Positions 14,296 to 64,000 of a DNA stretch of 64,000 bases are shown piece by piece (the stretch's first letter is position 1; every line of letters starts with the position of its first letter). This DNA comes from Chiloscyllium plagiosum. Its lineage: Eukaryota. The stretch spans positions 2,539,679 to 2,603,678 of the forward strand of contig NC_057759.1 in the NCBI RefSeq assembly GCF_004010195.1, given 5' to 3'. The notes beneath the pieces were generated by a model. It was not told the origin of the DNA. It ran no database searches and saw only the letters and a list, made by a program, of their open reading frames with translations. The position numbers were made by a program, and so were the translations under genes.

Positions 14296-15300
14296 AGGAG
14301 AAGGAGAGGAGTGCAGCTGCTGGAAAGTCAGAATCAAAAAGTGTGGCACAGGAAAAACATAGCAGATCAGGCAGCATCCGAGGAACAGGAGAGTCATTGA
14401 ATCAGGTATAGGCCCTTGGTCAGGAATGTGGGGGTGGGTTTTCTTTAGAGGGCGGAAGGGAAGGGTGCAGTGGATTGGATGGCGAGGAAGTCGGATTGGT
14501 ATGACAGGTCAAGAGGGCATTTCCGAGTTGTAAAGTTGAATTTGGGATGAGGTGGCGGGATGAGAGATCTGGAAACTAGTGAAGTTGATGTTGATGCCGT
14601 GTGTTTGGAGGGTTCCAAGGCAGAAAATGAGGCCTGCTTCGTTCAGTCGTCAGGTGGCTTGGATTTGGAGGTAGAGGAGGCCCAGCATGTATATGACCTT
14701 TGGCAAGTGTGATGGGTGTTGAAATGGACGGCCACAGGACAGTCGGGTGTTTGGTGCGTGTGACCCAGAGTTATTCCCTGAAATGATCCGCAAGTTGGCA
14801 TCCTGTCTCACCAATGTAGAGGAGGCCACATCGAGAACAACGGAACAGTTGGGTGGATATGCAAGAAAATCTCTGCCAGATTTGAAATGATCTTTTAGAG
14901 CTTGAGGACGAAGCTGTGGGCGCAGGTTTTACATCTCGTGTGACAGCAACCGAAGGTGCTAGGTTTAGTTGGTGGGTAGGTGAGGGGCGTGAAACTAACA
15001 AGGGAGTCACAGAGTGAATAGTCTCTGTGGAACACATGTAGGGGTAGGAACCCAAATATATCTGGTGGCAAGGTCTAATTGTCGATGATGGAAATGGCGG
15101 AGGATAATGCTCTGTCTCCACAGATTAGTGGAATGGTAGGTAAGGATCTGGGGATTCCATGGTTTTTTTGCGGTGGAAGTGGTGGTTTTCAAGTGCAGAG
15201 GTATGGTAAGTGGAGGAGGTGTAATGCAAGGCATTGCTGATCACGTTGGAGGGGAAATTACGGTCCTTAAAATAGGCGAGAATCTGGGATGTCCTGGAGT
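14296..15300 (-). mobile_element. Penelope-like element 3' part (GIY-YIG endonuclease plus pLTR)
   Basis: FRCSRCGLLYIGETGCQLADHFRE, with a terminal repeat at about 14296-14430. Confidence 0.85.
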
Positions 15301-19053: not shown

Positions 19054-19236
19054 CTGGAAATGTGTTGCTGGAAAAGCGCAGCAGGTCAGGCAGCATCCAG
19101 GGAACAGGAGAATCAACGTTTCGGGCATAGAAACGTCGGTTCTCCTGTTCCCTGGATGCTGCCTGACCTGCTGCGCTTTTCCAGCAACACATTTCCAGCT
19201 CTGATCTCCAGCATCTGCAGACCTCACTTTCTCCTC
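19054..19236. mobile_element. Penelope pLTR-derived hairpin element with 16-bp target-site duplication
   Basis: Inverted arms at about 19052-19122 and 19130-19200. The flanking direct repeat ctacatgtgactacag is at 19038-19053 and 19237-19252. Confidence 0.85.
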
Positions 19237-25649: not shown

Positions 25650-26935
25650 AGAACATAGAAAATTACAGCACAGTAACAGCCCCTTCTGCCTCTGATGCGA
25701 TATCAAACAGAACACCAAAGGAAACTAATCCCTTTTGTTTCCTCTTGGTCTATTTCCCTCCATTCCTTGAATTTTACAAATGCTTACATAAAATTCCCTC
25801 AAATGCCTTTGTTGTGCCTGCCTCAATCAGGATCCCTGGCAGCGCCTTCCAGACTCCACCATGCTGTGTAAAAACAATTTGTTCCTCACATCTTTTTTGA
25901 TCTTTTCCCGCTCACATTAAATGTATGCCCCTTCGTATCAGAAATTTGAACCGTGGGAAAAAGACTCTGACTGTGAACCCAATCCATGCAAAGCATGATC
26001 TTATAGACTTTTATGAAGTTTCCCCACTGCCTCCGCCGCTAAAGAGAAAACAATCCAAGTTTTTTCTCGCCTCTCATTATAGCTCGTACCCTCTAATCCA
26101 GACAGCATCCTGGTAAACCTATTCTGCATTATTCCAAATCCTCCACATCCTTCCTAAAAGTGGCGAACAGATTTAAACACAATACTCTAAGTGTGGCCTA
26201 ACCAATTTCTTCTAAAGCTGCAATATTACACCCTGACTCTTGTACTGAATTCCCCATTCAATAAACGCATGCCATGCACCTTCTTTAGCACCCTATCAAC
26301 TTACATGGCTACTTTAGGCAACATATTGACTAGAACATCAAGATCCCTTTGTATATTAGAGCTGGATGATTAACTGGATGTAATATTCCTTAACGTTTGA
26401 TTTCCCAAAGGGCAGCACCTCACATCTTCATGGATTAAACATCATCTGCCATTTCTCTGCCTATATCTACAACTGATCTGCAACGTGCTGTATCCTATGA
26501 CAACCTTCTACACTAACCATTACTCCACTGATATTTGCATAATCTGCAATCTTACTAACCCACCCAGCTACACTTGTATCTATGTTATTTATGTGATCAC
26601 AAACAGCAGAGATGCCAGTACAGATCCCTGTGGAACAGCCCTAGTCACGGACCTCCAGCCTCAAGATTAGAGTGGTGCTGGAAAAGCACTACAGAATCCG
26701 AGGAGCAGAAAAATCGACTTTTCGGGCAAAAGCACTGCTGTGCTTTTCCAGTTGCACTCTCATCTTAACTTTGATCTCCAGCATCTGCAGTCCTCACTTT
26801 CGCCTACAGACCTCCAACCTGAAGACCATCCTCCCACCACTACCTTCTGTCTTCTTTGGGCAAACCAATTCTGCATCCACGCAACCATGCATGTTAATCT
26901 TCTGGATGAGCCTACCACGCGGGGCCTTGCAGACT
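25650..26935 (-). mobile_element. CR1 LINE 3' fragment interrupted by a Penelope pLTR hairpin (about 26665-26805)
   Basis: WMQNWFAQRRQKVVVGGWSSGWRSV. The insertion is flanked by a degenerate duplication, gacctccagcctcaaga / gacctccaacctgaaga. Confidence 0.8.
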
Positions 26936-28547: not shown

Positions 28548-28715
28548 GGAGAATGTGAGGAGCTCAGATGCTGGAGATCAGAGTCAAAAATTGGAAAGGT
28601 ACAGAAGTTCAGGCAGCATCTGCAGAGCAGAGAAATTGATGTTTCGGTCATTTCTCATGAAGGGCGTCTGCCCTAAACATCAACTCCCCTGCTTTGCTTT
28701 CCCATCGCCGCACGT
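28548..28715. mobile_element. Penelope pLTR hairpin inserted in the Gypsy integrase
   Basis: gagaatgtgaggagctcagatgctggagatcagag... followed by its inverted partial copy. Confidence 0.7.
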
Positions 28716-35784: not shown

Positions 35785-36550
35785 GATGTTAGGAATCAGA
35801 AACAAAATTCAAAATTGCTCGAGAAACTCAGCGGATCAGTGTACATCTTTGGAGAGAAAGCTGAGTTAACGTTTTGGGTCCAGTGACCCTTCTTCTGACC
35901 ATGGTTTTTTGGGGACTGGGATACGGACACAAGGAGAAGGTGTTCAGGAAGAGACATTTTTGAACTTGATATTGAGTCCAGACAGCTGCAGGGTCCCCAG
36001 GCAAAAAGTGAGACGCTGTTCTTCCAGTTTTTGCTGTTCTTCCAGCTTGTGTGGAGCTTCCAGCTTGTGCTGGGGTTTGCTGGAACAAGACGCCGAGATG
36101 GAATTGTTGATCAGGTTGGAATAGCGTGTATACTAAAATGCAGGCAATTGGAAGCCTGGTCATTGTTGTCAACATAATGTATGTGTTCCTGACACTAATG
36201 TCCTTACCTCAACCTCTCACTCCAGCATTGTCATCACACAAGGCTGCTACCTCAAACAATTCATTGTCGGCCACTGACAGTACCCACGAGCAGCCATTCA
36301 TTCTCTCAGACCCATTCCTTTGTCTGCTTTTCACTCTTTCTGGGTCCGCACTCCACCTATCATTCACCCCTCTACCCACCAACCACCCCAAGAGTTTCTG
36401 CAGCACATTTACCAAACATTTTCCTCACTACCACAAATTCTGAAGAAGCGTTACTTCTTCAGAAATATTAAGTTTGCTTTCTCTCCACAGATGCCGCCTG
36501 CCCTGCTGATTTTTACAGTCATTTCTACTATACTTTTAAATTTCATTTTC
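35785..36550. mobile_element. Penelope-like fragments with inverted pLTRs at both ends
   Basis: gagaaactcagcggatcagtgtacatctttggagagaaag at the left end and its inverse, ctttctctccacagatgccgcctgccctgctg, at the right. Confidence 0.6.
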
Positions 36551-40155: not shown

Positions 40156-43100
40156 CATAGTGTCATCGAGTCATAGAGATGTACAGCATGGAAACAGACC
40201 CTTGGGTCCAACCGGTCCATGCCGACCAGATATCCCAACCCAATCTTGTCCCATCTTCCAGCACGCAGCCCATATCCCTCCAAACTCTTCCTATTCATAT
40301 ACTCATCCTAATACCTCTTAAATGCTGCAATTGTACTAGCCTCCACCACACCCTCTGGCAGCTCATTCCATACACATATCACCCTCTGCGTGAAAAGGTT
40401 GCCCCTTAGTCTCCGACGCTCCAGGGAAAACAACCCCAGCCTGTACAGCAACTCCCAATAGCTCAAATCCTCCAAAACGTGCAACGTTCTTGTATATCTT
40501 TTCTGTACCCTTTCAAGCTTTGCAACATCTTTCCGATAGGTAAGAGACCAGAATTGCACGCAATATGCGGACAGTGGCCTAACCAATGTCCTGTACACCA
40601 AAACATGACTCCCAACTCCTGTATTCAATATCTGACCAATAAAGGAAAGCATACCAAATGCCTTCTTCACTATCCTATCTGCCTGCGACTCCACTTTCAA
40701 GGAGCTATTAACCTGCACTCCAAGGTCTTTTTGTTCTGCAACACTCCCTAGGACCTTATCATTGAGAGTATAAGTCCTGTTAAGATTTGCTTTCCCAAAA
40801 TGCAGCATCTCGCATTTATCTGAAGTAAATTCCATCTGCCACTTCTCAGCTCATTGACCTATCTGGTCCAAATTCTGTTGTAATTTGCGGTAACCCTCTT
40901 CGCTGTCCACTACACCTCCCATTTTGGAGTCATCTGCAAACTTACTAACTGTACCTCTTATGTTCGCATCCAAATCATTTATGTAAATGACAAAAAGTAG
41001 CGGGACCAACACCGATCCTTGGTCACAGGCGTCCAGTCTGAACAACAACCGTCGACCACCACATCTACCTTTGAGGCAAGTCTGTACCAAATGGCTAGTT
41101 TTCCCTGTATTCCATGAGATCTAACCTTACTAATCAGTCTCCCATGGGGAACCTTGTCAAACGCCTTACTGAAGTCCATATAGGTCACATCTACTGCTCT
41201 GCCCTTATCAATCTTCTTTGTTACTTCTTCAAAAAACTCAATCAATTTTGCGAGACATGATTTCCCACGCACAAAGTCATGGTGACTATCCCGAATCAGT
41301 CCTTGCCTTTCCAAATGCATGTGCTTCTTGTCCCTCAGGATTCCCTCCAACAACTTTACCACCACTGAGGTCAGGCTCAACGGTCTATAATTCCCTGGCT
41401 TGTGTTTACCGCCCTTCTTAAACAGTGGCACTGCACCACGTTTGCAAACCTCCAGTCTTCTCGCACCTCACCTGTGACTATCGATGATACAAATAACTCA
41501 GCAAGAGGCCCAGCAATCACTTCTCTAGCTTCCCACAGAGTTCTTGGGTACATCTGATCAGATCCTGAGGATTTATCCACCTTTAACCGTTTCAAGACAT
41601 CCAGCACTTACTTCTCTGTCACTATCTATTTCCCTACAGTCTATGTCTTCCATATCCTATTCCACAGTAAATACTGATGCAAAATATTCATTTAGTATCT
41701 CCCCCATTTTCTGTGACTCCACACAAAAGCCGCTTTGCTGATCTTTGAGGATCCCTATTCTCTCCCTAGTTACCCATTTGCCCTTAATGTATTTGTAAAA
41801 ACTCTTTGGATTCTCCTTAATTCTATTTTCCAAAACTACCTCATGTCCCCTTTTTGTACTCCTGATTTCCCTCTTAAGTATACTCCTCCTTCCTTTAATC
41901 TCTTCTAAGGATTCACTCGATCTATCCTGTCTATACCTGACATATGCTTCCTTCTTTTTCTTCACCAAACCCTCCATTTCTGTGGTCATCCAGCATTCCA
42001 TGTATCTACCAGCCTTCCCTTTCACCCCGACATGAATATACTTTCTCTGGATTATTGTTATCTCATTTCTGAAGGCTTCCCATTTTCCATCCGTCCCTTT
42101 ACCTGCGAACATCTGCCTCCAATCAGCTTTCGAAAGTTCTTGCCTAATGAGGTCAAAATTGTCCTTTCTCCGATTTAGAACTTCAACTTTTAGATTTGGT
42201 CTATCCTTTTTCATCACTATTTTAAAACGAGCAGAATTATGGTCGCTGACCCCAAAAAGTGCTGACACCTCCGTCACCTGTCCTGCCTTATTTCCCAAGA
42301 GTAGGTCAGGTTTTGCACCTTTTCTAGTCGGTACATCAATATGCTGAATCAGAAAATTGTCTTGTACGTACTTAAGAAATTCCTCTCCATCTAAACCTTT
42401 AACACTACGGCAGTCCCATTCTACGTTTGGAAAGTTAAAATCCCCTACCATAACTACCCTATTAATCTTACAAATAGCTGAGATCACCTTACAAGTTTGT
42501 TTCTCAATTTCCCTATGACTCTTAGGGGGGTCTATAATACAATCCCAATCAGGTGATCATCCCTTTCTTATTTCTCAGTACCACCCAAATAACTTCCCTG
42601 GATGCATTTCCCGAGAATATACTCCCTCAGTACAGCTGCAATGCTATCCCTTACCAAAAATGCCACTCTCCCTCCCCTCTTGCCTCCCTTCCTATCCTTC
42701 CTGTAGCATTTGTATCCTGGAAAATTAAGCTACCAGTCTTGCCCTTCCCTGAGCCATGTTTCTGTAATTGCTATGATTTTCCAGTCCCATGTTCCTAACC
42801 ATGCCCTAAGTTCATCTGCCTTCCCTGTTAGGCCCCTTGCATTGAAATAAATGCAGTTTAATTTATTTGTCCTACCTTGTCCCTGCCTACCCTGACTGTT
42901 TGACTCACTTCTGTTCTCAACTGTACCAGTCTCAGATTGATCTCTTTCCTCACTCCCTCCCTGGGTCCCACCTCTCCACCTTACTCCCAAGCAGATCTAG
43001 CAAATCTCCCTGCCAGTATATTAGTTCCCTTCCAATTTCCGTGCAATCCGTCCTTCTTTTGCAGGTCACTTCTACCACAAAAGAGATTCCAATGATCCAA

Positions 43101-45675: not shown

Positions 45676-46012
45676 CAATCTATCATGCAAACCCTGCAGT
45701 GTGGGAAAAGAGTGTTTGGCCCAACAGGGCCACACTACTCTGATCAGTAACCCACACAGACCCATTCCCTACCATATTACCCCGATTAAGGCACCTAACT
45801 TATGCATCCCAGAATACTATAGGCAATGTAGCATAGCTAGTTCAACAAATCTGCACGTCTTTAGATTGTAGGAGGAAACGAAAGCACAAAGCGGTCAACC
45901 CAAGCAGACACAGGAAGAATTGCGAAGTCCACACAAACAGTGGCCCGGTGCTGGAATCAAACCCAGGTCCCTGGCGATATGAGGCAACAATGCTAACCAA
46001 AGAGCCATGGTT
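45676..46012 (-). mobile_element. HE1 V-SINE
   Basis: Reverse complement of head, V-domain and tail. Confidence 0.85.
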
Positions 46013-46794
46013 TCACACGTAAACAACAGATCCAGCTGTATTTTGGACAATTCATAGAAGATTCATCTGGTTGGTTCCAGGGCTTATAGGATGCACGTTC
46101 TAGTCAGAGATTATCCAGGCTGGGCCTGTTCACAACGCTGCTAAGATGATTGAGAGATTATTTTAAATATTAAAGAAGATAGTTATTGATACGCTTGAGA
46201 TTGTAAAGATATCTGGGGCTGCAGAGCTGGAATGGGGTCGAATTATGATAAAGATCAGAAGGAAGTTCTACTCGTGGTTGTTTACAGGGTGGAGTTGCTC
46301 ATCTTTGGAATTGTTACTCTTGGAAAATAGTGGGAGCTGTGTTACTGATGGTCATGCAGCGATGTGGTCATCAGAAACTGGCTTTCACAACATAAGATGT
46401 AGGAACAGGAGTAAGTCATTCGACCCCTCAATCTTGCTGTGACACCCTATAGGATTGTGGCTGATCCCACATTCCTCACATCCACTTTCCTATCTTTTAC
46501 CATAATTCCTGACTCATGAAGAATCTATCTGACTCACCCTCAAATGTAAACAAGGACTCTGCCCCACCACACAGTTCTGTGTGGCATGGAGTTCCAAAAA
46601 ATTCCAACTCTCTGACTGAAGAAATTCTTCAAGTCTTCAATTAGTGTCCCATATTCTGAGACTGTGCCCTCTGGTTCTGGAGTCTCCAATGAGGGAGAAA
46701 CATCCTCTCAGCAATGACCCTATAAAGCCCCTTTCTGGTTCAATGAGATCCCCTCTCATTCTTCTGATCACCAGTGAGTCGAGTCCCAATTTTG

Positions 46795-47130
46795 TTTTAG
46801 ATTTCCTACAGTGTGGAAAAAGGCCTTCAGCCCGAACAGTCCACCCCGACCATACGAAGAGTAACCCGCCCAGACCTATTTCCCTCTGACTAATGCACCT
46901 AACACTATGATTAGTACAGTAACCAACCCAGACCAATGCACCTAACACAATAGGCAATTTAACATGGCCAATTCACCTGACTTGCACATCTTTGTGATGT
47001 GGGAGGAAACTGGAGCAAACCCACGCAGACACGAGGAGAATGTGCACACTCCACACAGACCATCACCGAAGCTGCAAGCGAACCTGAGACCCTGGTGCTG
47101 TGAGACAGCAGTGCTAACCACTGTGCCATC
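46795..47130 (-). mobile_element. HE1 V-SINE
   Basis: Reverse complement of head (gcacagtggttagcactgctg), V-domain and tail. Confidence 0.85.
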
Positions 47131-49194
47131 GTGCTTATTGGGCAATCCCGTCATACCGGAGATGATCCTAGTGAACCCTGTCTGGCACAGACCAATGAAA
47201 TGGCCTCTTTCCTTAAAAAGGGGGAGCAAAACTGCTCTCCACGCTCCAGATGTGGTCTCCCAGCATCTTGGACAGTTGCAGTAAGTCTTCCCTGAATTTG
47301 GCAGGACACGTCAATTGAGTGTAAATTAGATATATCAAACACTTGCCCTTATCAGTCAAGGCATCAGTTCAGTTCGATGTTTGCATTGCTATCAAGGTTA
47401 AGTTTACGTTAGAGTTATACAAGTAATCTGCTCTCAAAAATAAAACGCACGCATACTTTCCCTCAGTCAAAAATGAAGTTCTGCAACATGATTTTAAAAA
47501 TATGTGAAACTTTGCATCCGTCAGAATACCACAGTTTTAGCACATATCAAAATATTCTTTGTGGTGTTATACAATTTGGGACAACATTTTCTGTTCCCTC
47601 AAGCATTTGATTTCTTTCATTAAATTAAGTCATTTCGCAGTTTGCGCATACACCTGCAAGAGGATCAGGATGGCCTTCGAAAAATGAAATAGTGCAGATG
47701 CCATGAATCTGAAACAAACACAAGAAGTGCTGGAGAACCTCAGCAGGTATGACAGCATTCGCAGAGATGGCGAGAGAAACAGAGTTAATGTATATTTTCC
47801 AGTGATCCTTCTGCAGAGGGAGGTTTACCAGAATGTTGTCTTGGTATGGGAGAGTTTCATTTATAGCAAGAGATTGGACGGATTGGAATTATGTTTTTCT
47901 TAGAGCAGAAGAAATTGAGGGACATACTTGAGACCTATACAATTATGAAAGACGAAGATAGAGTAGATAGGAAGAAACTTTATTTTTAACATGAAACGTT
48001 GACTGCATTTTTCTATCTCTCTCTCTCTCCACAAAAGGTGCCAAACCTGTTGCGTATCCCCAGAACTTTGTGTTTCTATCCTGTAATGTTAATTGTTTTC
48101 TCTCTCTCTCTCTCTCACCACATCAAGACCTCCACCCACCACCATGCTGCCAGACCTGCTGAGATTTTCATGTAATTTCTGCGTTTGTTTCAGACCTTCA
48201 GCATCACCAGTTTGTTTGCTTTATCTTGGTGGATATACATTTGTTCATTGTTTGCAACTCTTTGTCCAGTTATGGTCTTCTTAGCTGAGGAAGGATGTTC
48301 TGGCTATGGAGGGAGTGCAGCGACGTTTGCCTCAGCTGATTCCGGGATAGCAGGACTTATGGATGAAGGGACCTTGGATCGATTCGAATTATATCCACTC
48401 GATTTTCTATTTTTAAATGAGGGGTGTCTCATAGAAACAGATAAAATTTAAACCGGAGAAGACAGAGATAAACACAGAGGAGGTTGGGTACCTGTGGGGG
48501 TGGGGGGCGGTGAGCTCACAACCAAAGTATTGCAATCTGATGGAGACCCCGCAGTAGTGAGACAGGGATAAATATCTTCTCCCACTGAGTAGCGAGCCAG
48601 TGGAAGTCTTTGCCACAGAATGTGTTGGGACCAGAACATTGAATTGTGTTCGAGAAGGAGTTGAATCAAGTTCTTTGAGGCTGAAACGGGATACAGGGGA
48701 CTGAGCTGGATGATCCTATTGAATGGACAGAACGGGCCAGTAGGGTCAAATGCCCTACTCTTGCTCCTATGACCTATGTTTCTCAGGCACAATAACAAAT
48801 GAAGAACTCTTGGCATAGCATTGTCGCAGAAAAACTTGCAGGCAGATCTACAGCAATTCCTCAATAAGAGTGTGACTTAATCTGCTGTAGTTATCATGTC
48901 GAAGACTATGTAACGGTTCCGTTTTCAGGTACCAATGGCACACATGAAAACGTAGTTCTCTTTCTTCAGACACGGGAAAAGACATTTTACACTGCATTTA
49001 ACCTTTGCTCTGAAAACTATCTCTCTTTTCCTTCCGAATATGAGTGTACTGTTGTGAAGGAGGCACGTGAACATTGAGACTAACTTCTAGTTGAAGTGGA
49101 TGAAATACAGCGGAAATAGCTAGAAATAGGGTTACAAAGTTCACACTGCAACAGACAGGATTGTTTTTTCTGATGGATGTACATCCCTCCGCAG

Positions 49195-50080
49195 ATCATC
49201 GAGTCACAGAGCCATAGAGCATGGAAAAGGAGCCTTCAGTCCAACTCATCCATGCTGACCTCGTTTCCCAAACTGAACTAATCTCATTTGCCTGCAGTTA
49301 GCCGATATCCATCCAAACCTTCCCTCTTCACGTACCTGCTCAAATGTATTTTGTGCGTAACACTTTTTCACACCTCTACGTTTCTTTCTGGCAGTTCTAT
49401 CCACATATGAACCATTTGATGTGTGAAAAATTTGCCTCTCAAGTCACTTTTATTTTTTTTGTCTTCTCACCTTACAATTATGCACTCTAATTCTGAAATC
49501 ACTTACACTGGGGAATGACCTTGGCTTTTCACGTTATTTGTGTCCCTCATAATTTTAAATACCTCTGTAAGGTCACCCCTCAACCTCTCATGCATTAAAA
49601 AAAACAGTTTACCTATCCTCTCCATATAACTCAAATATTTCAGTCCTGGTAACATCCTTGTAAATATTTTCTTCACATTTTCCAATTTAATAATATCATT
49701 CCTGGAACAGGGAGAACAGAATGAAATTCAATAATCTAAAAGTGGCCTTACCAACATCCTATATAACAACATGACATCCCAACTCCTATTTTCAATGATC
49801 TGATCAATGACAATAAGAGTGTCAAATGCCTTTTTCACCACCCTGTCTACTTGTGGCGCAACGTTATGCAAATGCACTCTAATGTCTCTCTGCTCAACAG
49901 TCGCCAGACACCTACTATTAACTGTTTATGTCCTACCCGGGCTGACCTTATTAAAATTCAACACCTCATATTTATCTAAATTAAACTCCATTTGCCACTT
50001 CTCAAACGATTGGCCCAATTGATCAAGCTTCCTTGAAATCATCGATAACATTCATTGCTGCCAAGTTTACCACAAATTGT
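49195..50080 (-). mobile_element. CR1 LINE 3' fragment
   Basis: KKIFTRMLPGLKYLSYMERIGKL...RLRGDLTEVFKIMR plus tail. Confidence 0.85.
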
Positions 50081-50687
50081 TTTTTATCTCGTTGATGTTA
50101 ACCCTACTGAGAATCCTCTTGCAAGGATGCCTGCCTTGAAAAAGTTTTCCTCCTCTCCCTACAAGAATCTCAGGGAGCCCATTTCGCACTGAAACTCCCA
50201 GGTACTCTATGCTACTTTCTCCCCACCCCCACCCTCCTCTCCTTTATCTCTCCACCCTTTAGGCACTCTGCCAGTATTCATGATAGAGGGCGTTTGCCCG
50301 AAACGTCGATTTACCTGCTCCTCGGATGCTGCCTGAACTGTTGTAATTTTCCAACACCACTCTAATCCAGAATCTGGTTTCCAGTATCCGCAGCCCTTGT
50401 TTTTACCTCGTTTATTTTAACCCTACTGCGAATCCTCTAGCAAGGATGACTGCCTTGAAGAAGTTTTCCTCCTCTCTCTACAAGAGTCTCAGGGAGTTCC
50501 TCTCCCTCTGCAACTCCCAGGTAATCTATGCTACATATTCCCCACCCCCACCTTCCTCTCATTTATCTCTCCAACCTTCAGCCACTCTGCCTGTAGTCCT
50601 GATGAAGGGCTTTTGCCCGAAACATCGATTTTCCTGCTCCTCGGATGCTGCCTGAACTGCTATGCTTTTCCAGCACCACTCTAATCC
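50081..50687 (+). mobile_element. Head-to-tail dimer of a 319-bp non-autonomous Penelope-derived unit
   Basis: accctactg at 50101 and 50420, and gcccgaaac at 50296 and 50615. Each unit ends in pLTR sequence. Confidence 0.85.
50594..50630 (+). ncRNA. Minimal type I hammerhead ribozyme motif
   Basis: AGUC-CUGAUGA-A-GGGC(UUUU)GCCC-GAAAC-AUC/GAUU: both core boxes, helix II, and helix I formed by AGUC with GAUU. The sister copy has GAAACGUC/GAUU but a damaged CUGAUGA. Confidence 0.65.
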
Positions 50688-53102
50688 CGACAGGAAGCAC
50701 CACTGTCGCAGCAAACACACGTCTTTTCTGCCTTCAGTAATTACTGAGAAAGCAGGTAAAAACACAGGCGATCCCGGGTCAATTCGTAAGTTGGTTCCCA
50801 AACTAGGTTCGTGACGAAGTTAGGGGTGTGGTGGTGGTGTGGGGCTGTGTGACCAAAGACCATTGACCAATAGGGTACCACATGAAGCAGTACTGGCTCC
50901 CTTATTGTTTGCAGTATCCATAAACAATTTGAATGAGAATGTGTGAGAGATGATAAATTTATTTTGTGGATGAAGAGGAAGGTGTTGCATTAGAGGAGGA
51001 TACAGACAAATTGCTCAAATGGGCAGATCCTGCATTTATCTGAAAAGGGACTCCTTGAACGTTAAACGATTGAACATCGTCAGATGGGCAAATGGTGTTT
51101 AACTTTGATAAAAGGCAGGTGATGTACTTTTGAAGAAGGAATAAGACAAGGGAGTACTCAAGGCAGAACAGTAGGAAGCTCAGAGCGATTTAGCGGTGCT
51201 TATCCACATATATCAGAAACTGGCCATAGAGACTAAACGGGAAGTTAAGAAGGTTAATGGTTCGCTTGAACATAAGTTTAATTCTAATCACTTAAAAGTG
51301 AAAAGCCTGAGGTTTAGAGGAGGATTTGAGGATTGTTTTGTCCAGAGAGATTAAAGTGGTGGGATTACTCTTGTGAAAGTAGTTGTGGCAGGAACCATCG
51401 CAACTTCCAAAAAAAATTTGGATAAGCCATTGATGATGTAGACCAACGTGGAGGGGCCAAATGGCCTAGTTTTCCTATTTCTAATGGGCTTACGAAGTGT
51501 CTGAACTGCTGTAGATTTAAAGTACCTCATGCTGTACAGACTCATTCGGCCGAAGGTCTTCTTCTGTATTGTATGATTCTATGATTTAATGTTCTTTTTT
51601 CTTTGCTCAGACTTGTTTTAGGATCGTGCAATTCAAATCGTTAACCAAGATTCTTTGCAAAATACTATAAACTTTTCCAAATCTGGATGCATCTCAGGTG
51701 TTATGTGATAACTCCAGACCATTGTTCTGGGTCAGCAATATTCACGAACCGATCTTCTTCCAACGAATGAAAGGCAGTGTTTGCCAATTTTGGTCAGAGT
51801 TCTTTAGGTGGTAAACAGTAATCGAGTCGATGTATGGGTTTCAGTGAGACTTTTCATAAGGCGCCACATGACAGACTGACCATAAAAATAAGAGCACACT
51901 GGAATATGAACTGAAGGATCAGTAATTGGCCTCAGGGTGTTGGTCGAGAACTGTCAGTTTTTAGCTTCTCACTTGTGTAGTGAGTAAAGAGCCGAGAAAC
52001 AGGATAAGTGCAACCATACCTTTGTTGGCAGCATGGAACAGGATAAGCCCAATGGCCTCCATCCATGTTGTCAACATTGATGAGTTTAAGTATTGGATGG
52101 TCATTGCTTATGGTTACTAACTATCTTCAGCCAAGCATAGGGGGGTGGAAAATGTATTGGGGCTTTGCCTCAAGTGTGTGGCACAGTATTAAACGTGGAG
52201 CAACAATTGTCCTCAGTATCTTTCAGGGACCTCAACGTGAGATCACACTAAATGTAAAGTAAGTGTGCTCCTTCCTGTCCTGTAAAATAAATGTTTATAA
52301 AATTGTGTAAAAAGTCATTGACTTCCACAAGTCCATTTCTTTCCTTGAGACGAGCTATTGAGCTGTTCTGTAGAAAGTGGCGAATATTTTACATACAAAG
52401 TAGGCAGTAGACTAACATTGTCCTGTTCTCACTGCTGTACAAGGTGAAATTTTTGCATCACTACATCGAATCAGCAGTTTAGATTATGAAACTCACGATG
52501 ATACATGCAATATTGTTATTGGCTGGCTGACTTGTTTGCGTTTTATCGAAAATGTCTGTATCATGATGCATCCCTTTATCCATTCCCCCACAACTTCTTA
52601 CTTACGTAATTGTATAGTGAATGTTCGCAATCTGCTCGGTGTAAGACCGCCAGACTTTGAAATTTAAATTCAACACAAATCTGGAACTGCAATTAAAAAA
52701 ATCGAACCTTTATTCCAGAAACATTACTGACGATCTCTGGTTTAATAGTGCACCGAAAGTATCTCTCGGCCATCAGCTCCCCACACTGTAGATGCACAAT
52801 AAAGAAATGCCAGGCAGCAACACAACTTCATGGTATGGTCTCTAAGAATGAGTTTTAGGAATTGCTGTTTACCTGAAGGTTGTGTTTGTGCAAATTTCCT
52901 TTCCATCCTGACATGAAATATTCAGCTCTCAATAACCATGGTTTACAAATCATGCACTCAATGCGTCATTATGTGTACATCGAGACTACGCAGCAGCTCC
53001 CAGTCACAGGATTTAAGATTTGGGTATCATATAATCACAGAATCATAGAGTGCCGTAGCAACTCCTCTGCACATGAAGTCTGTCCCAGCAAACTAAACGA
53101 AC

Positions 53103-56100
53103 TTTGTATCTGAGAGAGAACAGCAGTGCTTCAGTCGCTGATGGAGATCAGCGGTGTCTTTGCAACTGAGCGAGAACGGCAAGGCCTGTGTATCTGAGGG
53201 AGAACAGCAAGGCCTGACTAACTGAGGAAGAAGAGCAGAGCTTGAGTAGCCTTAGGAGACCTGCAGTGCCAGTGTATGTCAGAGAGAACAGAAGTGCCTT
53301 CGTATCTGAAAGAGAACAATAGTGCCTGGGTAGCTGAGGGAGATCAGCGTTGTCTTTGTAACTGAGCGAGAACAGCAAGGCCTGTGTATCTGAGGGAGAA
53401 CAGCAGTGCCTGACTAACTCAGGGAATACAGCAGTGTTTGAGTAACTGAAGGAGACCTGCAGTGCCAGTGTAAGTGAGAGAGAACAGCAATGCCTTTTTA
53501 TCTGAAAGGGAACAGCAGTGTCTGAGTAGGTGAAGGAGAATAGCAGTGCCTGTGTATCTGAGGGAGAACAGCAGTGCCTGTGTATCTGGGAGGGAACAGA
53601 AGTGCATGTGTATCTATGAGAGAACAGCAATACCTCTGTAGCCGGGAAGGAAAAACAGTGCCTGTGTATCTGAAAGAGAACAGCAGTACCTCTGTAGCAG
53701 GGAGCCAACAGAAGTCCCTGAGTAGCGCAGGGAAAACAGCAGTGCCTGTGCATCTCAGAGAGAACAGCAGGGTCTGTGTTTCTCAGAGAGTACAGCAGTG
53801 TCTTTGTGTCAGAGAGAGAACAGCGGTGTTTTTGTATCTGAGTCAGAACAGCAGTGTCTGAGCATTTGAGAGAGAACAGCAGGGCTTCTTTAGCAAGGAG
53901 ACAACAGTAGTGCCTGTTTATCTTAGAGAGACCAGCAGTGCCTGAGTATCTCAGAGAGAGCAGAAGTGCCTGTGCATCTGAGAGAGAACAGCATGGCCTG
54001 TGTTTCTCAGAGAGAACAGCAGTGTCTTTATATCTGAGAAAGAACAGCGGTATATTTGAATCTGAGAGATAACCGCTGTGTCTGAGAATCTTAGAGAGAA
54101 CAGCAGTGCCTCTGTAGCAGGGACAGAACAGTAATACCTGTGTATCTGAGAGAAAACAGCAGTGTCTGTGTATGTGAGAGAGAACGGCAAGGCCTGCGTA
54201 TCTGAGGGAGAACAGCAAGGCCTGACTAACTGAGGGGGAAGAGCAGTGCTTTAGTAGCCGAAGGAGACCTGCAGTGCCTGTGTATGTGAGAGGGAACAGA
54301 AGTGCCTATGTATCTGAGAGAGAACAGCAGTGCTTGAGTAGCTGAGGGAGATCAGCGTTGTCTTTGTAACTGAGCGATTACAGCAAGGCCTGACTAACTG
54401 AGGGAATACAGCAGAGTGTGGGTAACTGAAGGGGACCTGCAGTGCCAGTGTATGTGAGAGAGAACAGGAGTGCCTTTGGAACTGAGAGGGTACTGCAGAG
54501 CCTGAGTAGGTGAGGGAGAACAGCAGTGCCTGTGTATCTGGTTGGAAACAGAAGTGTGTGTATATCTGTGAGATAACAGCAGTACCTGTGTAGCGGGGAG
54601 GTAACAGCAGTGCCTATGTATCTGAGGGAGAACAGCAGTACCTCTGTAGCAGGCAGCGAACAGAAGTGCCTGAGTAGCGGAGGGAAAGCAGCAGTGCCTG
54701 TGCATCTGAGAGAGAACAGCAATGCCTGCGTTTCTCGGAGAAAACAGCAGTGCCTTTGTGGCTGAGAGAGAACCGCAATGCCTGAGCCTTGGAGAGAGAA
54801 CAGCAGTGCCTGTGTATCTGAGAGAGAACAGCAGGGCCTGTGTATATGAGAGAGAACAGTAGGGCCTGTGTTTTTCAGAGATAAGAGCAGTGTATTTGTA
54901 TCTGAGAGAGAACAGCGGTAGCTTTGTATCTGAGCGAGAACCGCAATGTCTGAGCATCTGAGAGAGAAGACCTGTGCCTCTGTAGCAGGGTGGGAACAGT
55001 AGTGCCTGTGTACCTGAGAGAGAACAGCAGTGCCTATCTGTCTGAGAAAGAACAGCAGTGCCTGTGTATCTGAGGGAGTTCAGCAGTGCCTGCGTATCTG
55101 AGGGAGAACAGCAGTGCCTGTGTATCTGAGAGAGAACAGCAGTGTCTTTGTGTCTGAGAGAGAACAGCAGTGTCTGAGTCGGGGATGGAAACAGCAGTGC
55201 CTCTGCATCTGAGAAAGTGCATCAGAGCCTTTGTATCTGAGAGAGAACAGCAGTGTCTTTGTATCTGAGAGAGAACAGCAGTGCTGTGTATCTGAGAGAG
55301 ACCAGCAGTGCCTGAGTATCTGAGGTGGATTCGCAGTATCGGTGCGTCTGAGAGAGAACAACAGTAGCTGTATACGTGAGAGAGAACAGCAGTGCCTGTA
55401 TATCTGAGAGAGAACAGTTGTGCCTCTGTAGCTGGGAGAGAAAAGTAGTGCCTCTGTAGCAGGAAGACAGCAGCAGTGTCTATGTATCTGAGAGAGAACA
55501 GCAACGTCTGAGCAGCTGAGGGAGATCAGCGGTTTCTTTGTGTCAGAGAGCGAACAGCAGGGCCTATGTATGTGAGGGAGTTCAGCCGTGCCTCGGTCTC
55601 TGATTGAGAACAGAAATGCCTACGTAACTGAGTGACAACAGCAGTGTCTGTGAATCTGAGAGAGAACAACAGTACCTATGTACCTGAGAGTGACCAGCAG
55701 TGCCTCTGTATCTGAGAAAGAGCATCGGAGGCTGTGTATCTGTGAAAGAACAGCAGTGTCTTTGTATCTGAGCGAGAACAGCAGTGCCTGTGTATCTGAA
55801 AGAGCAGAGCCATGACTCTGTAACAGGGAGAGAACAGCAATGTCTATGTATCTGAGAGAGAACATCAGTACCTTTGCAACAGAGTATCAACAACAGTGTC
55901 TTTGTATCTGAGAAAGAACAGTAGTGTCCTTTTAACTGAGAGAGAACAGCAGAATCTTTGTATCTGAGAGGGACCAGCAGTGCCTGTGTATCTGAGAGAG
56001 AAGTGCGGTGACTCTGTAGCAGGGAGAAAACTGCAGTGCCTATGTATCTGAGAGAGAACAGCAGTGTCTGTGTATCTGAGAGAGAACTGCAGTGCCTGTG

Positions 56101-59100
56101 TATCTGAGGGAGTTCAGCAGTGCCTGTGTATCTGAGGGAGTTCAGCAGTGCCTGTTTATCTGAAAGAGAACAGCGGTGTCTTTGTCTCTGAGAGGGGACA
56201 GCAGTGCCTGAGTAGCTGAGGGTGAACATCAGTGCCACTGTATTTGAGAGAGAACAGCAGGGCCTCTGTATCTGAGAGAAGACAGCAGTATCTTTATATC
56301 TGAGAGGGATCAGCAGTGCCATTGCATCTGAAGGGAACAGCAGTGTCTCTCTATCAAAGAAAGAAGAGCAGGGCCAGTCTATCTGAGAGAGAACAGCAGG
56401 GCCTGTGTATGTGAGGGAGTTCGGCAGTGCCTGGGTCTCTGAATGAGAACAGCAGTGCCTATGTAACTGAGTGACAACAGCAGTGTCGGTGTATCTGAGA
56501 GAGAACAGCAGTACCTCTTTAGCTGGGAGTGAACAGCAGTGCCTATGTATCTGTGAAAGTGCATCAGAGCCTGTGTATCTGAGAGAGAACAGCAATGTTT
56601 TTGTATCTGAGAGAGAACAGCAGTGTCTTTGTATCTGAGAGGGAACAGCAGTGCCTGAGTGGCTGAGGGAGAACAGCAGATAACTTTGTACATGATGGAG
56701 AACAGCAGAGCCTCTGTATCAAAGAGAGATGGGCATGGTCTGTGTATCTGAGAGAGAACAGCAGTGCCTCTGGAGCAGGGAGAGAATAACAGCGCCTGTG
56801 TATATGAGAGAGAACAGACGCGGATTTTATCTGAGGGAGAACAGAAATGCCTGTGTATATGTAAGAGACCAGCAGTGCCTCTGTATCAGAGAGAGAACAG
56901 GACCACCTTTGTATCTGATAGAGAATGGCAGTTTCTCTGTTTCAGAAATGGAACAGCAGTACCTGCGCATCTGAGAGAGTACGGCAATGACATTGTATCT
57001 GAGAGGGGAATTCCGTACCTGTGTTGGTGAGAGAGAACAGTACTGCCTTTGTAACCGGGGGAGGAATTCAGTACCTGTATTGCTGAGAGAGAACAGCAAT
57101 GCCGTTATGTCTGAGACAGAACTGCAGTGCCTATGTTCCTGAAAGAGAACAGCAATGCCTCTGTATCAGAGAGAGAACAGCAGTGTCTGTGTGTCTGAGA
57201 GAAAACAGCAATGCCTCTGTTTCGGAGCGAGTACCTTTGTATCTCAGAAAGGACAGCAGTGCCTGTATATCTGGATGAGACAAACAGTCCCTCTGTGAGA
57301 ATGTGAACAGCAGTGCCTCTCTATCCGAGAGCGAACACCAGTGCCAGAGGTTCTGAGAGAAGACCAACAATGCATGGTTATCTGAGAGAAATCAGAAGTG
57401 CCTTTCTATCTGTATCTGAAAGAGAACAGCAGTGCCATCGTATCTGAGAGAGAAGTAACATTGCGTCTGAGAGAGTACTGCAGTACCTATATTTCTAAGA
57501 GAGAAGAGCAATGCCCTTATATCTGAGAGAGAACAGCAGTGCCTATGTATCTGAGACAGAACAGCAAAGCCTGTGGATCTGAGAGGGAACTGCAGTGCCA
57601 TTGTATCTGGGAGAGACCAGTAGTGTCTATGTCTCTGAGAGAGAGCAGCAATGCCCATGTATCAGAGAGAGAACACCAGTTCCTGTTTATCCGGGAATAA
57701 ACAGCAATGCCTCTATATCTGAGCGAGGACTGAATGCCTTTGTATCTGAGGGAGAACAGAAATGCCTGTGCGTCGGAGAGAGAACAGCAATGCCTCTGTA
57801 TTAGAGCGAGAACAGTAGTGCATCTGTATCTGAGACAGAACAACAGTAACATTGTTTCTGAGAAAGGAGAGTGGTACCTGTATTCTAAGAGAGAACAGCT
57901 GTGGCTCTGCATCAGAGAGAGAACAGCAATGCCTCTGCATCAGGCAGAGAGCAGCAGTATCTTTCTATCTGAGTGAGAACAGCTGTAACTCTGGTTCACA
58001 GAGAGAACAGCAGTGCCTGTGTCTCTGAGAGAGGACAGCAGTACTTTGTTTCTGAGAGAGCAGCAGTGCCTTTGAAACTGAGAGAGAGCAGCAGACTCTG
58101 TGTCTGAGAAAGAACAGCAATGCCTCTGTTTTAGAGCAGAACAGAAGTACCTTTGTTTCTCAACGAGGACAGCAGTGCCTGTGTATCTGGAAGTGACCAC
58201 CAGTGCCTCTGTGAGAGGTCGAACACCAGTGCCTGTGTATCTGAGAGTGAACAGCAGTGCCTGTGTACCTGAGAGCGAACAGCAGTGCCTGTATTTGAGA
58301 GCGAACAGCAGTGCCTGAGAATCTGAGAGAAGAATAGCAGTGCCTGTGTTTCTGAGAAAGTACAGTAGTGTCAGTGTCTCTGAGGGAGAGAACAGCAGGG
58401 CCTTTGTATTAGAGAGAGAACAGCAGTGCCTGTGTTCCTGAAAGAGGATAACAATGCCACCGTATCAGAGTGAGAGCAGCAGTGTATGTGTATCTGAGAG
58501 AGAACAGCGAAACATTTGTATATGAGCGAAAACAGCAGTACCCTTATATCTGAGAGGCAATGGTCATGCCTCTGTATCTGAGAGAAAACAGCAATGCTGT
58601 TGTATCTGAGAGAGAACTGCAGTGCCTGTGTTCCTGAAAAAGGACAACAATGCCACTATATCAGAGTGAGAGCAGCAGTGTATGTGTATCTGAGAGAGAA
58701 CAGCACTACATTTGTATTGCAGAGAGGACAGCAGTGCCTGTGTTTCTGAGAAAGTACAGTAGTGCCAGTGTCTCTGAGGGAGACAACAGCAGAGCCTTTT
58801 TTTTTTATCAGAGAAAGAACAACAGTGCCTGTGTTTATGAACGAAAACAGCACTACCCTTCTAGCTGAGAGAAAATGGTAGAACCCGTGTAACTGCGTGA
58901 GAACTGCAGTGCCATTGTATCTGAGAGAGGACAGCAGTACCTGCGTTTCTGAGCAAGACCAACAATGCCTTGGTATCTGAAAGGAAACTGGAGTGCTTTG
59001 TATCTGAGAGAGAACGGCAGTGCCTCTGTTTCAGAGAGAGAAGAGCAGTACCTGTGTAACTGAGAGAGGACAGCAGTACCTGTGATTCTGAGAATGGCAG

Positions 59101-62100
59101 TGCCTTTGGACCTGAGAAAGGATGGCAGTTCCTGTGTATCAGTGAGGGAACAACAATGTCTGCAAATCAGTGAGAGAAAAGCATTGCGTATGTGTCTGAA
59201 AGAGAACAGCAGTGCCTTGTTTCTGAGAGAGAACAGCAGTGCCTCTGAGTCAGTGAGAGAACAGCATTGTGTATTTGTCTGAGAGTAAATAGTAGTGCCT
59301 GTGTATCTGATAGAGAACATTTGAGCCTTGGCATCTGAGAGAGAACCGCAGGTTTTGTGTTTTTGAGAGAGAAAAACAATGACTGTGTATCTGAGAGAGA
59401 ACAGCAGTGCCTGTGTATGTGGAAGAGACCAGCAGTGTCTCTGTATCAGAGAAAGAACAACAGTGCCGGTGTATCTGAGAGAGAACAGCATTGCCTGTGT
59501 ATCTGAGAGACTACAACAGTGCATTGGTATGTGAGTTAGAACAGCAGTGCCCGTGTATCTGGAAGAGACCAGCAACGACTCTGCATCAGAGGACGGAGCG
59601 CAGAGCCTTTGTATCTGACAGACAACAGCAATGTGTCTGCATCCGAAATAGAACAGCAGTGTAAGTGTGTCTCAAAAGGAATAGCAGTGCCAGTGTGTCT
59701 TAGCCCAAAACACCAGTGCGTTTGTGCCTGAGAGAGAACAGCAGTAACATTGCGTCTGAGAGAGGACAGCAGCACCTGTATTTCTAAAAGAGAACAGTAG
59801 TGCCCTTACATCAGAGAGAGAGCAGCAGTGCCTGATTATCAGAGACAGGACAACAATGTCTGTGGATCTGAGAGGGAACTGCAGTGCCACTGCATCTGGG
59901 AGGGACCAGCAGCGACTATGTCTCTGAGAGAGAGCAGCAATGCCTCTGCATAAGAGAGAGAAAAGCAGTTCCTGTTTATCTGGGAAAGGACAGCTTTGCC
60001 TTTGTATCTGAGTGAGGACTGAATGCCTTTGTATCTGCGAGAGAACAGCAATGCCTGTCTGTCGGAGAGAAAACAGCAATTCTCTGTATGTGAGCGAGAA
60101 CAACAGTGCCACTAAAACTGAGACAGAACAGCAATAAGATTGCGTCTGAGAGAGGGCAGCAGTTCCTGTATTTCTAAGAGACAACAGTATCTGTGTATCT
60201 GAGAGATAACAGCAGTGCCTGTGCATTTGAGATAGAACACAAATGCCTCAGCATCAGAAAGAGAACAGCAGATCCTGTATGTCTGAGAGAGAACAGCATT
60301 GTCTTTTTATCTGAGGGAGAACAGCAGTGCCAGTGTGTTTGTAAGAGACCAGCAGTGCCTCTGTATCTGAGAGAGAACAGGAGTGTCTTTGTATCTGAGA
60401 GAGAACGGCAGTGCCTCTGTTTCGGAGAGAGAACAGCAGTACCTGCGTATCTGAGAGAGTACGGCAGTGCCATTGTATCTGCGAGAGGAATTCAATACCT
60501 GTGTTGCTGAGAAAGAACAACAGTGCCTTTATATCTGAGAGAGGAATGCAGTGCCCACATATCTGAGAGAGAACAGCAATGCCGTTGAGTCTGAGAGAGA
60601 ACTGCAGAGCCTATGCACCTGAGAGAGAACAGCAATGCCTCTGCATCAGAGAGAGAACAGCAGTGTTTGTGCATCTAGAAGAGACGATCAGTGCCTCTGT
60701 GAACGAGTGAACAGCAGTGCCTGCGTATCTGGGAGCGAACAGCTGTGCCTAAGCATCTGAGAGAAGAACAAAATTGCCTGTGTATCTGAGAGAGAACAGC
60801 AGTGCCACTGTATCTGATAGAGGACAGCAGTGCCTTTGTATCTGAGAGAGAACAACAGCGCCTGTGTATCAGAGAGAGAACAGCAGTGTTTGTGTATCTA
60901 GAAGAGACCATCAGTGCCTCTGTGAACGAGTGAACAGCAGTGCCTTTGTATCTGAGAGAGAACAGCAGTGCCTGTGTATCTGAGAGAGAACAGCAGTGTA
61001 ATTGTATCTGATAGAGAACAGCAGTGCCATTGTATCTGAGAGAGGACAACAGTGCCTTTGTACCTGAGAGAGAACAGCGGTGTCTGTGTAACTGAGGGAG
61101 AACAGCAGTGCCATTGTATCTGAGACAGGACAGCAGTGCCCATGTACCTGAGAGAGAACAGCAATGCCTCTGTATCGGAGAGAGAACATCAGTGCCTGAG
61201 TACCTGAGAGAGAACAGCACAGCCACTCTTTTTAAGAGAGGACAGTAGTACCTCTGTTTCCTCAAGAGAATAACTGGGCCTCTGTATCAGAGAGAGAACA
61301 GCAGTGACTTTGTACCTGTAAGAGACCAGCAGTGCTCTGTATCAGGAAGAGAACAGGAGTGCCTTTGTGTCTGAGGGAGAACAGCAGTGCCTGTAGATAT
61401 CAGAGAGCACAGATGTGCTTGGGTATCTGAAGGAGAACGTCTGAGCGTTAACATCTGAAAGAGAACAGCAGGTTTTGTTAGTCTGAGAGAGAAAAACACT
61501 GCCTGTGTATGAGATAGACAACAGCAGTGGCTGTGTATTTGAGGGAGATCAGCAGTCATTGTTTATCTGAGAGAGAACAGAGGTGCCTGTGTATCAGGAA
61601 AGGAACCAGAAGTGACTGTGTATCAGAGAGAAACCAGCAGCGCCTTTGTGTCTGAGGCAGAAAAGCAGTGCGTGTCTATCAGAGGGAGAACAGCAGTGTC
61701 TGTGCATCTGACAGAGAACAGCAGTGCCTGTGTATGTGAGCGAGAATAGCAATGCCTGTGCATCGGAGAGAGAACAGGGATGCCTCTCTATCGGATATAA
61801 AACAGTAGTGCCTGAATATATGAAGCAGAATTGCAGTCCCAGTATATCAGAGACAGAATAGCAGTGCCTGTGTATCTGAGAGGGAACAACAGTCATTGTT
61901 TATCTCTTGGGGAACAGCAATGTCTGTGTACCTGAGAAAGAACAGCAATGTCTGTGCATCTGGAAGAGAACAGCACTGCCTGTGTATCTGAGAGAGAACA
62001 GCAGTGCCTCTGTATCGGAGATAACTCAGCAGTGCCTGTGTGTCTGTGACAGAATAGTAATGTCTGTGCATCTGAGGGAGAACAGCAGTGCCTTTTATCT

Positions 62101-64000
62101 GAGACAGAACAGCAGTGACTGTGTATCTGAGAGAGAACAGCAAAGCCTCTGTATCTGAGAGAGAACAGCAGTTCATTTGTATCTGAGAGAGAACAGCAGT
62201 ACCATGGAAGTAGAAATTCAGTTAACTGGGAAGATGATAAAAGCTAGAATTATTTTCCATGGAGCAGAAAACATTGAGCGCAGATTCAATAGAGATGATC
62301 AGATGCCTGAGAGAGAAAACAACAGTGCCTGAATATCTGAAAGAGAACAGCAGTTCCTTTTCCTCTGAGAAGAACAGCAGTTGTGCAACTGAGAGAGAAC
62401 AACAGCACTTGTGTATCTGAGCGAGAACAGCAATGACTGTGTATCAGAGAGAGAGCAACAGTGCCCGACTATCTGAGAGAGAACAGCAGTGTCTGTGCAG
62501 CTGAGGGAGAACAAAATTGCCTTTAGATATCAGAGAGCAGAGCAGTGCCTGTGTATGTGAGAGAGAGCAGCAGAGCCTTTGTATGTGAGAGAGAATAGCA
62601 ATGTCTCTGCATCAGAAAGAGAACAGCAGTGCATGTATATCTCAGAGAGAATATCACTGCTTGTGTGTCGGAAACCCCAAACAGCAGTGCGCTTGTGTCT
62701 GAGAGAGAACAGCGCTGCCTGTGTATCTGAGAGTGATTAGCAATGCCTCTGTCAGAAAGAGAACAGCAGTGCCTAAGTATCTGAGAGTGAATAGCAGAGC
62801 CTGCGTATCTGAGAGAGAACAGCAGTGTCAGCGTATCTTAGAGAGAACAGCAGTTTTTTCTGTGTCTGAGAGATAACAGCAATGCCTCTGCATCTGGAAG
62901 GGACCAGCAGTGACTGTGTATCAGAAAAAGAACAGCAGTGTAATTGTATCTGAGAGAGAACAGCACTGCCTGTGTATCTGAGAGAGAACAGCGATGCCTC
63001 TGTGTCTGAGACAGAATAGTAGTGCCTGTGCATTTGAGGGAGAACAGCAGTTTCTTTAATCTGAGACAGAACAGCAATGCCTCTGTATCTGAGCGAGGAC
63101 TGAATGCCTTTGTATCTGAAGGAGAACAGCAGTGCCTGCGTGTCAGAGAGAGACGAGCAATGCCTCTGCATCAGAGCGAGAACAGCAGTGCCTGTACACC
63201 GGAGAGGGAACAGCATTGCATTTTTATCTGAAAGAGAACAGCAGTGCCTGTGTCTCTGAGAGAGAATGGCAGTGACTCTGTTTCGAAGAGAGAGCAGCAG
63301 TACCTGCATATCTGAGATAGAACAGCAGTACAATTGTATCTGAGAGAGGAATTCAGTACCTGTGTTGCTGAGATAGAACAGAAGTACAATTGTCTCGGAG
63401 AGAGGAATTCAGTACCTGTGTTGCTGAGAGAGAACAGCAATGCCGTTTTGTCTGAGAGAACTGCAGTGCCTATGTACCTGAGAGAGAACAGCAATACCTC
63501 TGTTTCAGAGCGAGAACAGAAGTACCTTTGTATCTCAGAGAGGACAGCAGTGCTTGTGCATCTGGATGAGACCATCAGTGCCTCTGTGAGAGAGTAAACA
63601 GCAGTGCCTGCATATCTAACAGCGAACAGCAGTGTCTGAGGTTGTGAGAGAGACCGGCAGTTCCATTGTATCTGATAGAGGACAGCAGTGCCTGTGTATC
63701 TGAGAAAGTACAGCAGTGCCAGTGTCTCTGAGAGAGAGAACAGCAGAGCCTTTTTATTAGAGAAAGAACAGCAGTGCCCGTGTTTATGAGCGAAAACAGC
63801 AGTATCCTTCTATCTGAGAGAGAATGGTAGTGACTGTGTAACTGCATGAGAACAGCAGTGCCGTTGTATCTGAGAGAGGACAGCAGTACCTGTGTTTCTG
63901 AGAGAGACCAGCAATGCCTTTGTATCTGAAAGAGAACTGTAGTGCCCGTGTGTCTGTAAGGGACCAGCAGTGCCAATGTATCAGAGAGAGAACTGGAGTG
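53103..64000. repeat. 28-bp satellite array, consensus GAACAGCAGTGCCTGTGTATCTGAGAGA, running off the window end
   Basis: 28-bp periodicity (e.g. 55023, 55051, 55079, 55107) over about 10.9 kb with diverged monomers. Confidence 0.97.

Follow-up and report, generated by a model that had tools for sequence, protein, structure and literature searches.

The window analysed is a stretch of DNA of 64,000 nucleotides, and the locus described here is a tandem array at 50081–50687, for which Tandem Repeats Finder reported a period of 319, 1.9 copies, 86% matches, 0% indels and a score of 948. BLAST aligned the two copies with 86.6% identity across 291 nt (E 1e-98), with 39 mismatches in the 291 aligned positions. 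An initial annotation had described two 319-bp units in head-to-tail order; the repeat is confirmed, but the array holds 1.9 units, and a spacer of ∼25 nt (50372–50396) occurs once in it. The left edge of the array falls at 50077–50081 and the right edge at 50690–50693, giving a total length of 610–617 nt, and the segments follow one another in the order U1–P1–spacer–U2–P2, all on the plus strand. Segment U comprises a T-rich leader and a putative ORF start; its first copy (50077–50203, the left edge being uncertain within 50077–50081) has an ATG at 50127, and its second copy (50397–50522) has an ATG at 50446, from which a 69-codon frame continues across the junction with the next segment. Segment P, the pLTR segment, has a pyrimidine-rich 3′ region, a hammerhead and a downstream pLTR stretch (50204–50371 in copy 1 and 50523–50690 in copy 2). 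U meets P at a GT (50202–50203 and 50521–50522) at the same unit position in both copies, a placement that was derived from read depth and from the ends of sequenced pieces.

The spacer is element-derived, is matched by other relics in the window and has high depth in all four of the sequencing runs considered below. To the left of the array is a decayed LINE 3′ fragment (49194–50076, minus strand), which lies outside the unit, matches other LINE copies in the window and adjoins the array with its truncated 5′ end. We take this fragment to be of the CR1 type; the RT ORF of a related LINE copy near 41 kb matches RVT_1. A continuation of the LINE was looked for on the right side of the array and is absent there. 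The right flank (50694–50900) is near single copy and is common, together with the right end of the array, to a second organism. Elsewhere in the window, a broken LINE with endonuclease and RVT_1 pieces is found at 40308–42487 (minus strand), and a 28-bp satellite of ∼391 copies (68% matches) occupies 53105–64000 and continues past the window end; the satellite has long Cys/Leu/Ser/Arg frames on its minus strand, which are probably non-coding.

Each unit carries a motif of the minimal type I hammerhead kind, as the initial annotation had proposed, at 50276–50311 and 50595–50630 (plus strand). An Rfam search of 46000–55000 at E ≤ 5 gave two weak unrelated matches and no hammerhead; the call thus rests on a position-by-position comparison with the minimal motif of metazoan PLE pLTRs, as defined in PMC4209133 (Cervera and de la Pena 2014; publications are cited here and below for those parts of their text that were accessible). 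In this comparison every feature of the motif (CUGANGA core, extra base, stem II with G10.1–C11.1, GAAA, palindromic 15.2–16.2 and UH) is intact in at least one copy, and all are intact together in neither. Both motifs have a 4-bp stem II, one extra base ahead of stem II and no loop 3. Copy 1 reads A-C-G-U at positions 15.1–16.1, which agrees with the earlier proposal that helix III is reduced to an ACGU palindrome for pairing between copies. A descriptor allowing one substitution matched once in 1–53000 of the window and in none of 20 shuffles.

The lesions in the two motifs differ. A single damaging change had been proposed for each copy; this holds for copy 2, in which positions 3–15.2 are intact and G16.2 is replaced by A at 50624 (cut site after 50626), but copy 1 has three changes (C3>A, G8>A and A9>G), with its GUC intact and its cut site after 50307. 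The base at 50624 is G in 55–59% of the DNA depth in the public runs. Changes at C3–G8 and at 15.2–16.2 are known from hammerhead biochemistry to be disabling. Both hammerheads being damaged, the locus should not release monomer and is probably inactive in this respect, which is in line with the suspicion first raised from the sequence. U3–A8 covariation is mentioned for hammerheads in the accessible text of PMC4209133. On paper, the lesions of the two copies are complementary: in a pairing check, the catalytic strand of copy 2 can join the cut site of copy 1 by a 4-bp helix I and the two inner pairs of helix III, and of the four inter-copy helix III pairs three are kept; the reverse core, with the catalytic strand of copy 1 and the cut site of copy 2, is broken. 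At most one cross-copy core would thus be possible, and as this would make one cut only, no monomer would be freed. Forcing the cross-copy fold costs 12.5 kcal/mol above the minimum-energy fold.

The parentage of segment P was examined within the window. The end of a relic (14307–14496) is 69% identical to segment P (126 of 182 columns), with a score of 101 versus a shuffle maximum of 60. In the whole relic (14307–15300, minus strand), a pLTR-like end comes after broken frames that contain a Cys-rich linker and GIY-YIG-like motifs, and the upstream side of the relic is joined to LINE sequence. The broken frames carry CCHTRCKTC and RCSRCGLLYIGETG; from a reading of the translation by eye, we take these to represent a Penelope-like element (PLE), with its Cys-rich linker and its GIY-YIG stretch. 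Pfam gave no match to the relic in any of the three frames, a protein search with the relic peptide gave none, and protein searches returned no full-length parent element. The likeness of segment P to this relic end, downstream of the GIY-YIG-like motifs, favours the Penelope derivation put forward in the initial annotation. The parent clade is probably Neptune-like, with the relic being a relative of the parent and not the parent itself; the linker rule is shared with Nematis. A linker motif of the CCHTRCKTC kind marks the Neptune and Nematis clades in the accessible text of PMC8557442.

Six further loci in the window match the ribozyme-bearing part (73–85% over 39–98 nt), one of them being an inverted pair. 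Two pLTR ends face each other head to head at 19062–19224, forming an inverted pair whose centre lies close to the ribozyme; a short direct repeat (CTACATGTGA-like) borders the pair on either outer side. Two further inverted pLTR stubs lie at 26665–26830 and 28591–28693, and the former seems to have landed within a LINE, a word being repeated at its edges. A second family of pLTR-like type has left stubs at 47708–48194 and 35790–35920, including a pair of inverted arms separated by 385 nt.

The initial annotation had explained the unit as an ORF-start fragment fused to a pLTR. Three protein searches with the 69-codon frame of copy 2 found no homologue supporting an ORF start, so that the label for segment U is putative; Pfam gave nothing significant for this frame. 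Two protein matches of the frame were rejected as low-complexity repeats. In rotifer PLEs the pLTR plus tail includes the first 12–22 codons, according to the accessible text of PMC3846280; a deletion fusing an ORF start to the pLTR is therefore unnecessary. By analogy, segment U may natively be part of the end of the element, in which case the junction would be an ordinary tandem joint requiring no internal deletion.

To place the locus in a wider context, public sequencing runs were compared with 50372–50900 at 80% likeness; the data comprise contigs and polyA single-cell RNA reads, and four of the 24 runs listed (X1, X10, X15 and X21) were used, X21 being the single-cell RNA run (2% of the run). 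Record 8 of X1 is identical across 50659–50900, that is across the right edge and flank, with a depth of 6.88, and organism A (X1) thus carries the locus. Record 16 of X10 covers 50618–50900 with 18 other letters and four gaps; the right end of the insertion is therefore older than the split of organisms A and B. The summed depth reaches ∼1e7 across the ribozyme and 2–4e5 across U and the 5′ part of P, values that are inflated by overlapping short contigs and are not copy numbers. The ribozyme-bearing module is clearly very abundant, and the unit is assigned to a very abundant Penelope-like family as its terminal module. Loose piece ends accumulate at 50597, immediately ahead of the ribozyme core. 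No X21 reads lie on the flank beyond 50713, which in polyA single-cell data from 2% of a run is not firm on expression, and no RNA run among the matches listed contains the sequence (best share 0.36; small shares were left unused).

These data also bear on whether the array is an artefact of assembly, or the motif a matter of chance. No contig among those listed spans the whole dimer, and Rfam is silent on the motif; against this, 39 of 291 sites differ between the copies, each of which has private changes, the right edge was recovered from independent runs of two organisms and the motif is missing from all 20 shuffles. We consider an artefact or a chance motif very improbable.

Two occurrences of the U|P junction motif are seen across the window, versus 0.05 expected. 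In X1 the depth is 3.4–4.1e5 on one side of the junction and 2.4–3.8e5 on the other and drops to 3.6e4 in one junction bin and 5.4e4 in the other, the minimum for the second junction lying in bins 50498–50533; the dip is several-fold in both X1 and X10, and X15 dips too. The dip may be caused in part by the mismatches of copy 2 itself near the junction, and the residual depth can be explained by pieces that end there from both sides. None of the 24 long pieces listed crosses 50522 (141,048 other pieces lie outside this list). Nine of these 24 belong to records that are long enough to cross the junction (records 1, 4 and 5 of X1, 10, 11 and 15 of X10 and 19, 20 and 21 of X15); records 17 and 22 of X15 were left out of the nine, as by their strand orientation they stop short of the junction. 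In X21, the minus-strand RNA reads add up to 93 read-bases in the junction bin; exactly this depth results from four reads ending and five reads starting at the GT, none of them crossing, if clipping at the GT is assumed for these nine reads.

A dispersed non-autonomous retrozyme family, with tens of loci or more, a 319-nt unit and some intact members making monomers or circular RNA, would be the strong form of the idea in the initial annotation, and the collapse in depth together with the lack of crossing pieces tells against a family that shares the junction studied. The in vitro record is also unfavourable, with just one of nine Xenopus dimers cleaved in the available text of bioRxiv 10.64898/2026.07.22.740005. 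Minimal hammerheads in print cleave weakly even as dimers (PMC4209133 and PMC6765202, as far as accessible). Such a family would nevertheless fit the size and G+C of the unit (49%), which match those of published non-LTR retrozymes (PMC7229834, accessible part), and some depth does remain in the junction bin. The 319-nt stretch between the cut sites folds somewhat better than shuffles (z −2.3, with two of 100 shuffles equally good), which is weak support for structure. Taking both sides together, we consider a dispersed family with this unit unlikely.

Other joints between U and P are found at different points in organisms A, B and C (for example 50437–50597, 50474–50604, 50485–50597 and 50497–50546). 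Joints of this type thus recur in the family, and the junction studied is a minority form, present at anything from one locus to a small family. The joint from 50473/50474 to 50603/50604 has a depth of 513 in X1 and of 135 in X10, the intervening letters not being known; as a possible multi-copy mini-unit it is more promising than the junction on which this analysis centres. Given 513 versus 6.9 for single copy in X1, some forms of the joint may be multi-copy, which would also suit a dispersed family. The junction pattern gave no matches in viral, metagenome and prokaryote collections. The family patterns gave none in the viral and prokaryote collections and one in the metagenomes, L001, which is alike in the ribozyme core only; these blanks are no evidence, since the collections are not expected to include the host. 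The L001 match (1178–1206) is a solo minimal-hammerhead-like core; the metagenome contig that carries it is eukaryote-like and unrelated, with no other likeness by eye.

The two copies have decayed independently. At 14 of the 14 sites listed at which copy 2 departs from at least 90% of the run depth, the common letter is found in copy 1, and the one departure shared by both copies, at 50656, is a polymorphic site (53–58%). As all 14 listed differences are unshared, the duplication is placed early, at most about one fifth into the history of the locus (95% bound 0.19); this comparison covers 24 of the 34 element rows, the ten omitted being minor variants below 20% in X1, and a shared change could be hidden among these ten or the 49 further difference rows that lie outside those listed. 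By subtraction, copy 2 has ∼15 private changes and copy 1 ∼24 in 291 nt.

The geometry restricts how the dimer can have arisen. Once 319 is subtracted from the length of the array, no more than 298 nt remain, whereas local copying would need 319 nt; a single local duplication is thus ruled out as the source, as the array falls short of two units and the spacer occurs once. No element remnant above shuffle level was found in either flank, and a displaced left remnant was sought beyond the LINE and is absent. The longest word common to both edges is 5 nt, so that no target-site duplication exceeds this length; in PLEs such a duplication is optional (PMC3846280, accessible text). The left edge adjoins a truncated LINE, and loss of part of a longer array is therefore conceivable.

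Such a loss is one step of a history in which an ordinary partial-tandem Penelope insertion (P–spacer–U plus a 5′-truncated P) underwent early unequal crossing-over between P segments and later lost its left end, with neither circular RNA nor a family being involved. Partial tandems are the usual form of PLE insertions (PMC8557442 and PMC3846280, in the parts available), and local amplification by unequal crossover is named as a route in the accessible text of bioRxiv 10.64898/2026.07.22.740005. The many different points at which U is joined to P, the lack of a second locus with the studied junction in the run data, the truncated LINE at the left edge and the missing target-site duplication all suit this history. 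It requires three events, however, with the duplication confined to the first fifth of the history of the locus, and the deletion would have to be traceless across 48500–50076, where the remnant score is 23 versus a shuffle maximum of 33–40. We regard it as possible but doubtful.

As a single event, the dimer is most simply explained by more-than-unit copying from a circular or multimeric RNA in which the junction was already present, and we give an even chance to the array being an old, single retrotransposed insertion copied from such an RNA of the 319-nt Penelope terminal module. The inserted module would comprise the 3′ region, minimal hammerhead, spacer and downstream extension of a Penelope-like element. 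The U|P junction would have a single origin, for which a tandem joint at the GT overlap is the simplest account; back-splicing was considered as another source, as CAG-GT resembles a donor. The circular or multimeric RNA bearing this junction would then have been copied for more than one round by the reverse transcriptase of the element acting in trans, giving a U–P–spacer–U–P product whose ends are not in phase with the junction. If both units of a pair were intact, the hammerheads would pair via A-C-G-U, cut after GUC and release 319 nt; the copies at this locus have decayed. A circle model with more-than-unit copying is proposed in the accessible text of PMC4209133.

As a single locus and a decayed copy the array means little, and its useful trait is its geometry. 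A repeated junction, out-of-phase ends and independently aged copies are the footprint expected of more-than-unit copying of circular or multimeric RNA, a process that has been proposed and not demonstrated for PLEs (PMC4209133) and for retrozymes, as far as the accessible texts go; one locus is insufficient to establish this model. Going further, the GT junction could be the fossil seal of a 319-nt circular RNA and each distinct U-to-P joint in the three organisms the birth of a separate mini-retrozyme lineage, a speculation that we think quite unlikely. If it were true, these genomes would hold a countable record of retrozymes repeatedly born from PLE ends and spread by rolling circle, and the circle model could be tested from junction and end-phase statistics alone.

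Non-LTR retrozymes as derivatives of PLEs are already in print, including one chondrichthyan, and the idea is thus not new: in its available text, the preprint of Li, Clavereau and Pollet (bioRxiv 10.64898/2026.07.22.740005) reports them in 20 of 31 vertebrates as derived from PLE pLTRs, with the one chondrichthyan surveyed being positive (mean consensus 363 bp) and most families having at most seven units. The 319-bp unit itself may be among the tables of this preprint. A literature search combining ribozyme, cartilaginous fishes and Penelope found no publication. The array has much in common with the animal non-LTR retrozymes of Cervera and de la Pena 2020 (PMC7229834, accessible part) and of the same preprint: a head-to-tail unit of ∼300 nt with G+C below 50%, one type I hammerhead per unit and a probable origin in the PLE terminal repeat. 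At 319 bp with a G+C of 48.9%, the unit lies within the size and composition described for this class (150–450 bp, G+C <50%, no protein), and with 1.9 copies at a period of 319 it is tandemly repeated, as the accessible text of bioRxiv 10.64898/2026.07.22.740005 asks of non-LTR retrozymes. Unlike the retrozymes of PMC7229834, which have the canonical motif in the text available, the array has the minimal PLE type. It shares with the minimal hammerheads of PMC4209133 (accessible part) the extra base between 9 and 10.1, the G10.1–C11.1 pair, the palindromic 15.2–16.2 without loop 3, a short helix I and the dimer-only architecture; its helix II is 4 bp, in contrast to 7–8 bp in the Schistosoma examples given there, and, unlike in the PLE hammerheads of that paper, its two motifs have a spacing of 319 nt, lack an intervening ORF and are both mutated.

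The 5′-truncated ends and short-overlap joint recall the partial tandems of endonuclease-bearing PLEs, as described in the available parts of Arkhipova et al. 2013 (PMC3846280) and Craig et al. 2021 (PMC8557442), as do a terminal repeat that possibly holds the first codons and an insertion beside a LINE without target-site duplication. A single ordinary partial tandem of the kind in these papers differs from the array, which has the identical joint twice and outer ends that are out of phase. The rule for an 'active' retrozyme in the accessible text of bioRxiv 10.64898/2026.07.22.740005 is that two or more consecutive units each have a complete type I hammerhead; neither unit here does, and the array is known from the DNA of one locus. 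As two complete ribozymes are lacking, we file the array among decayed tandems of Penelope terminal modules, although it behaves like a non-LTR retrozyme insertion.
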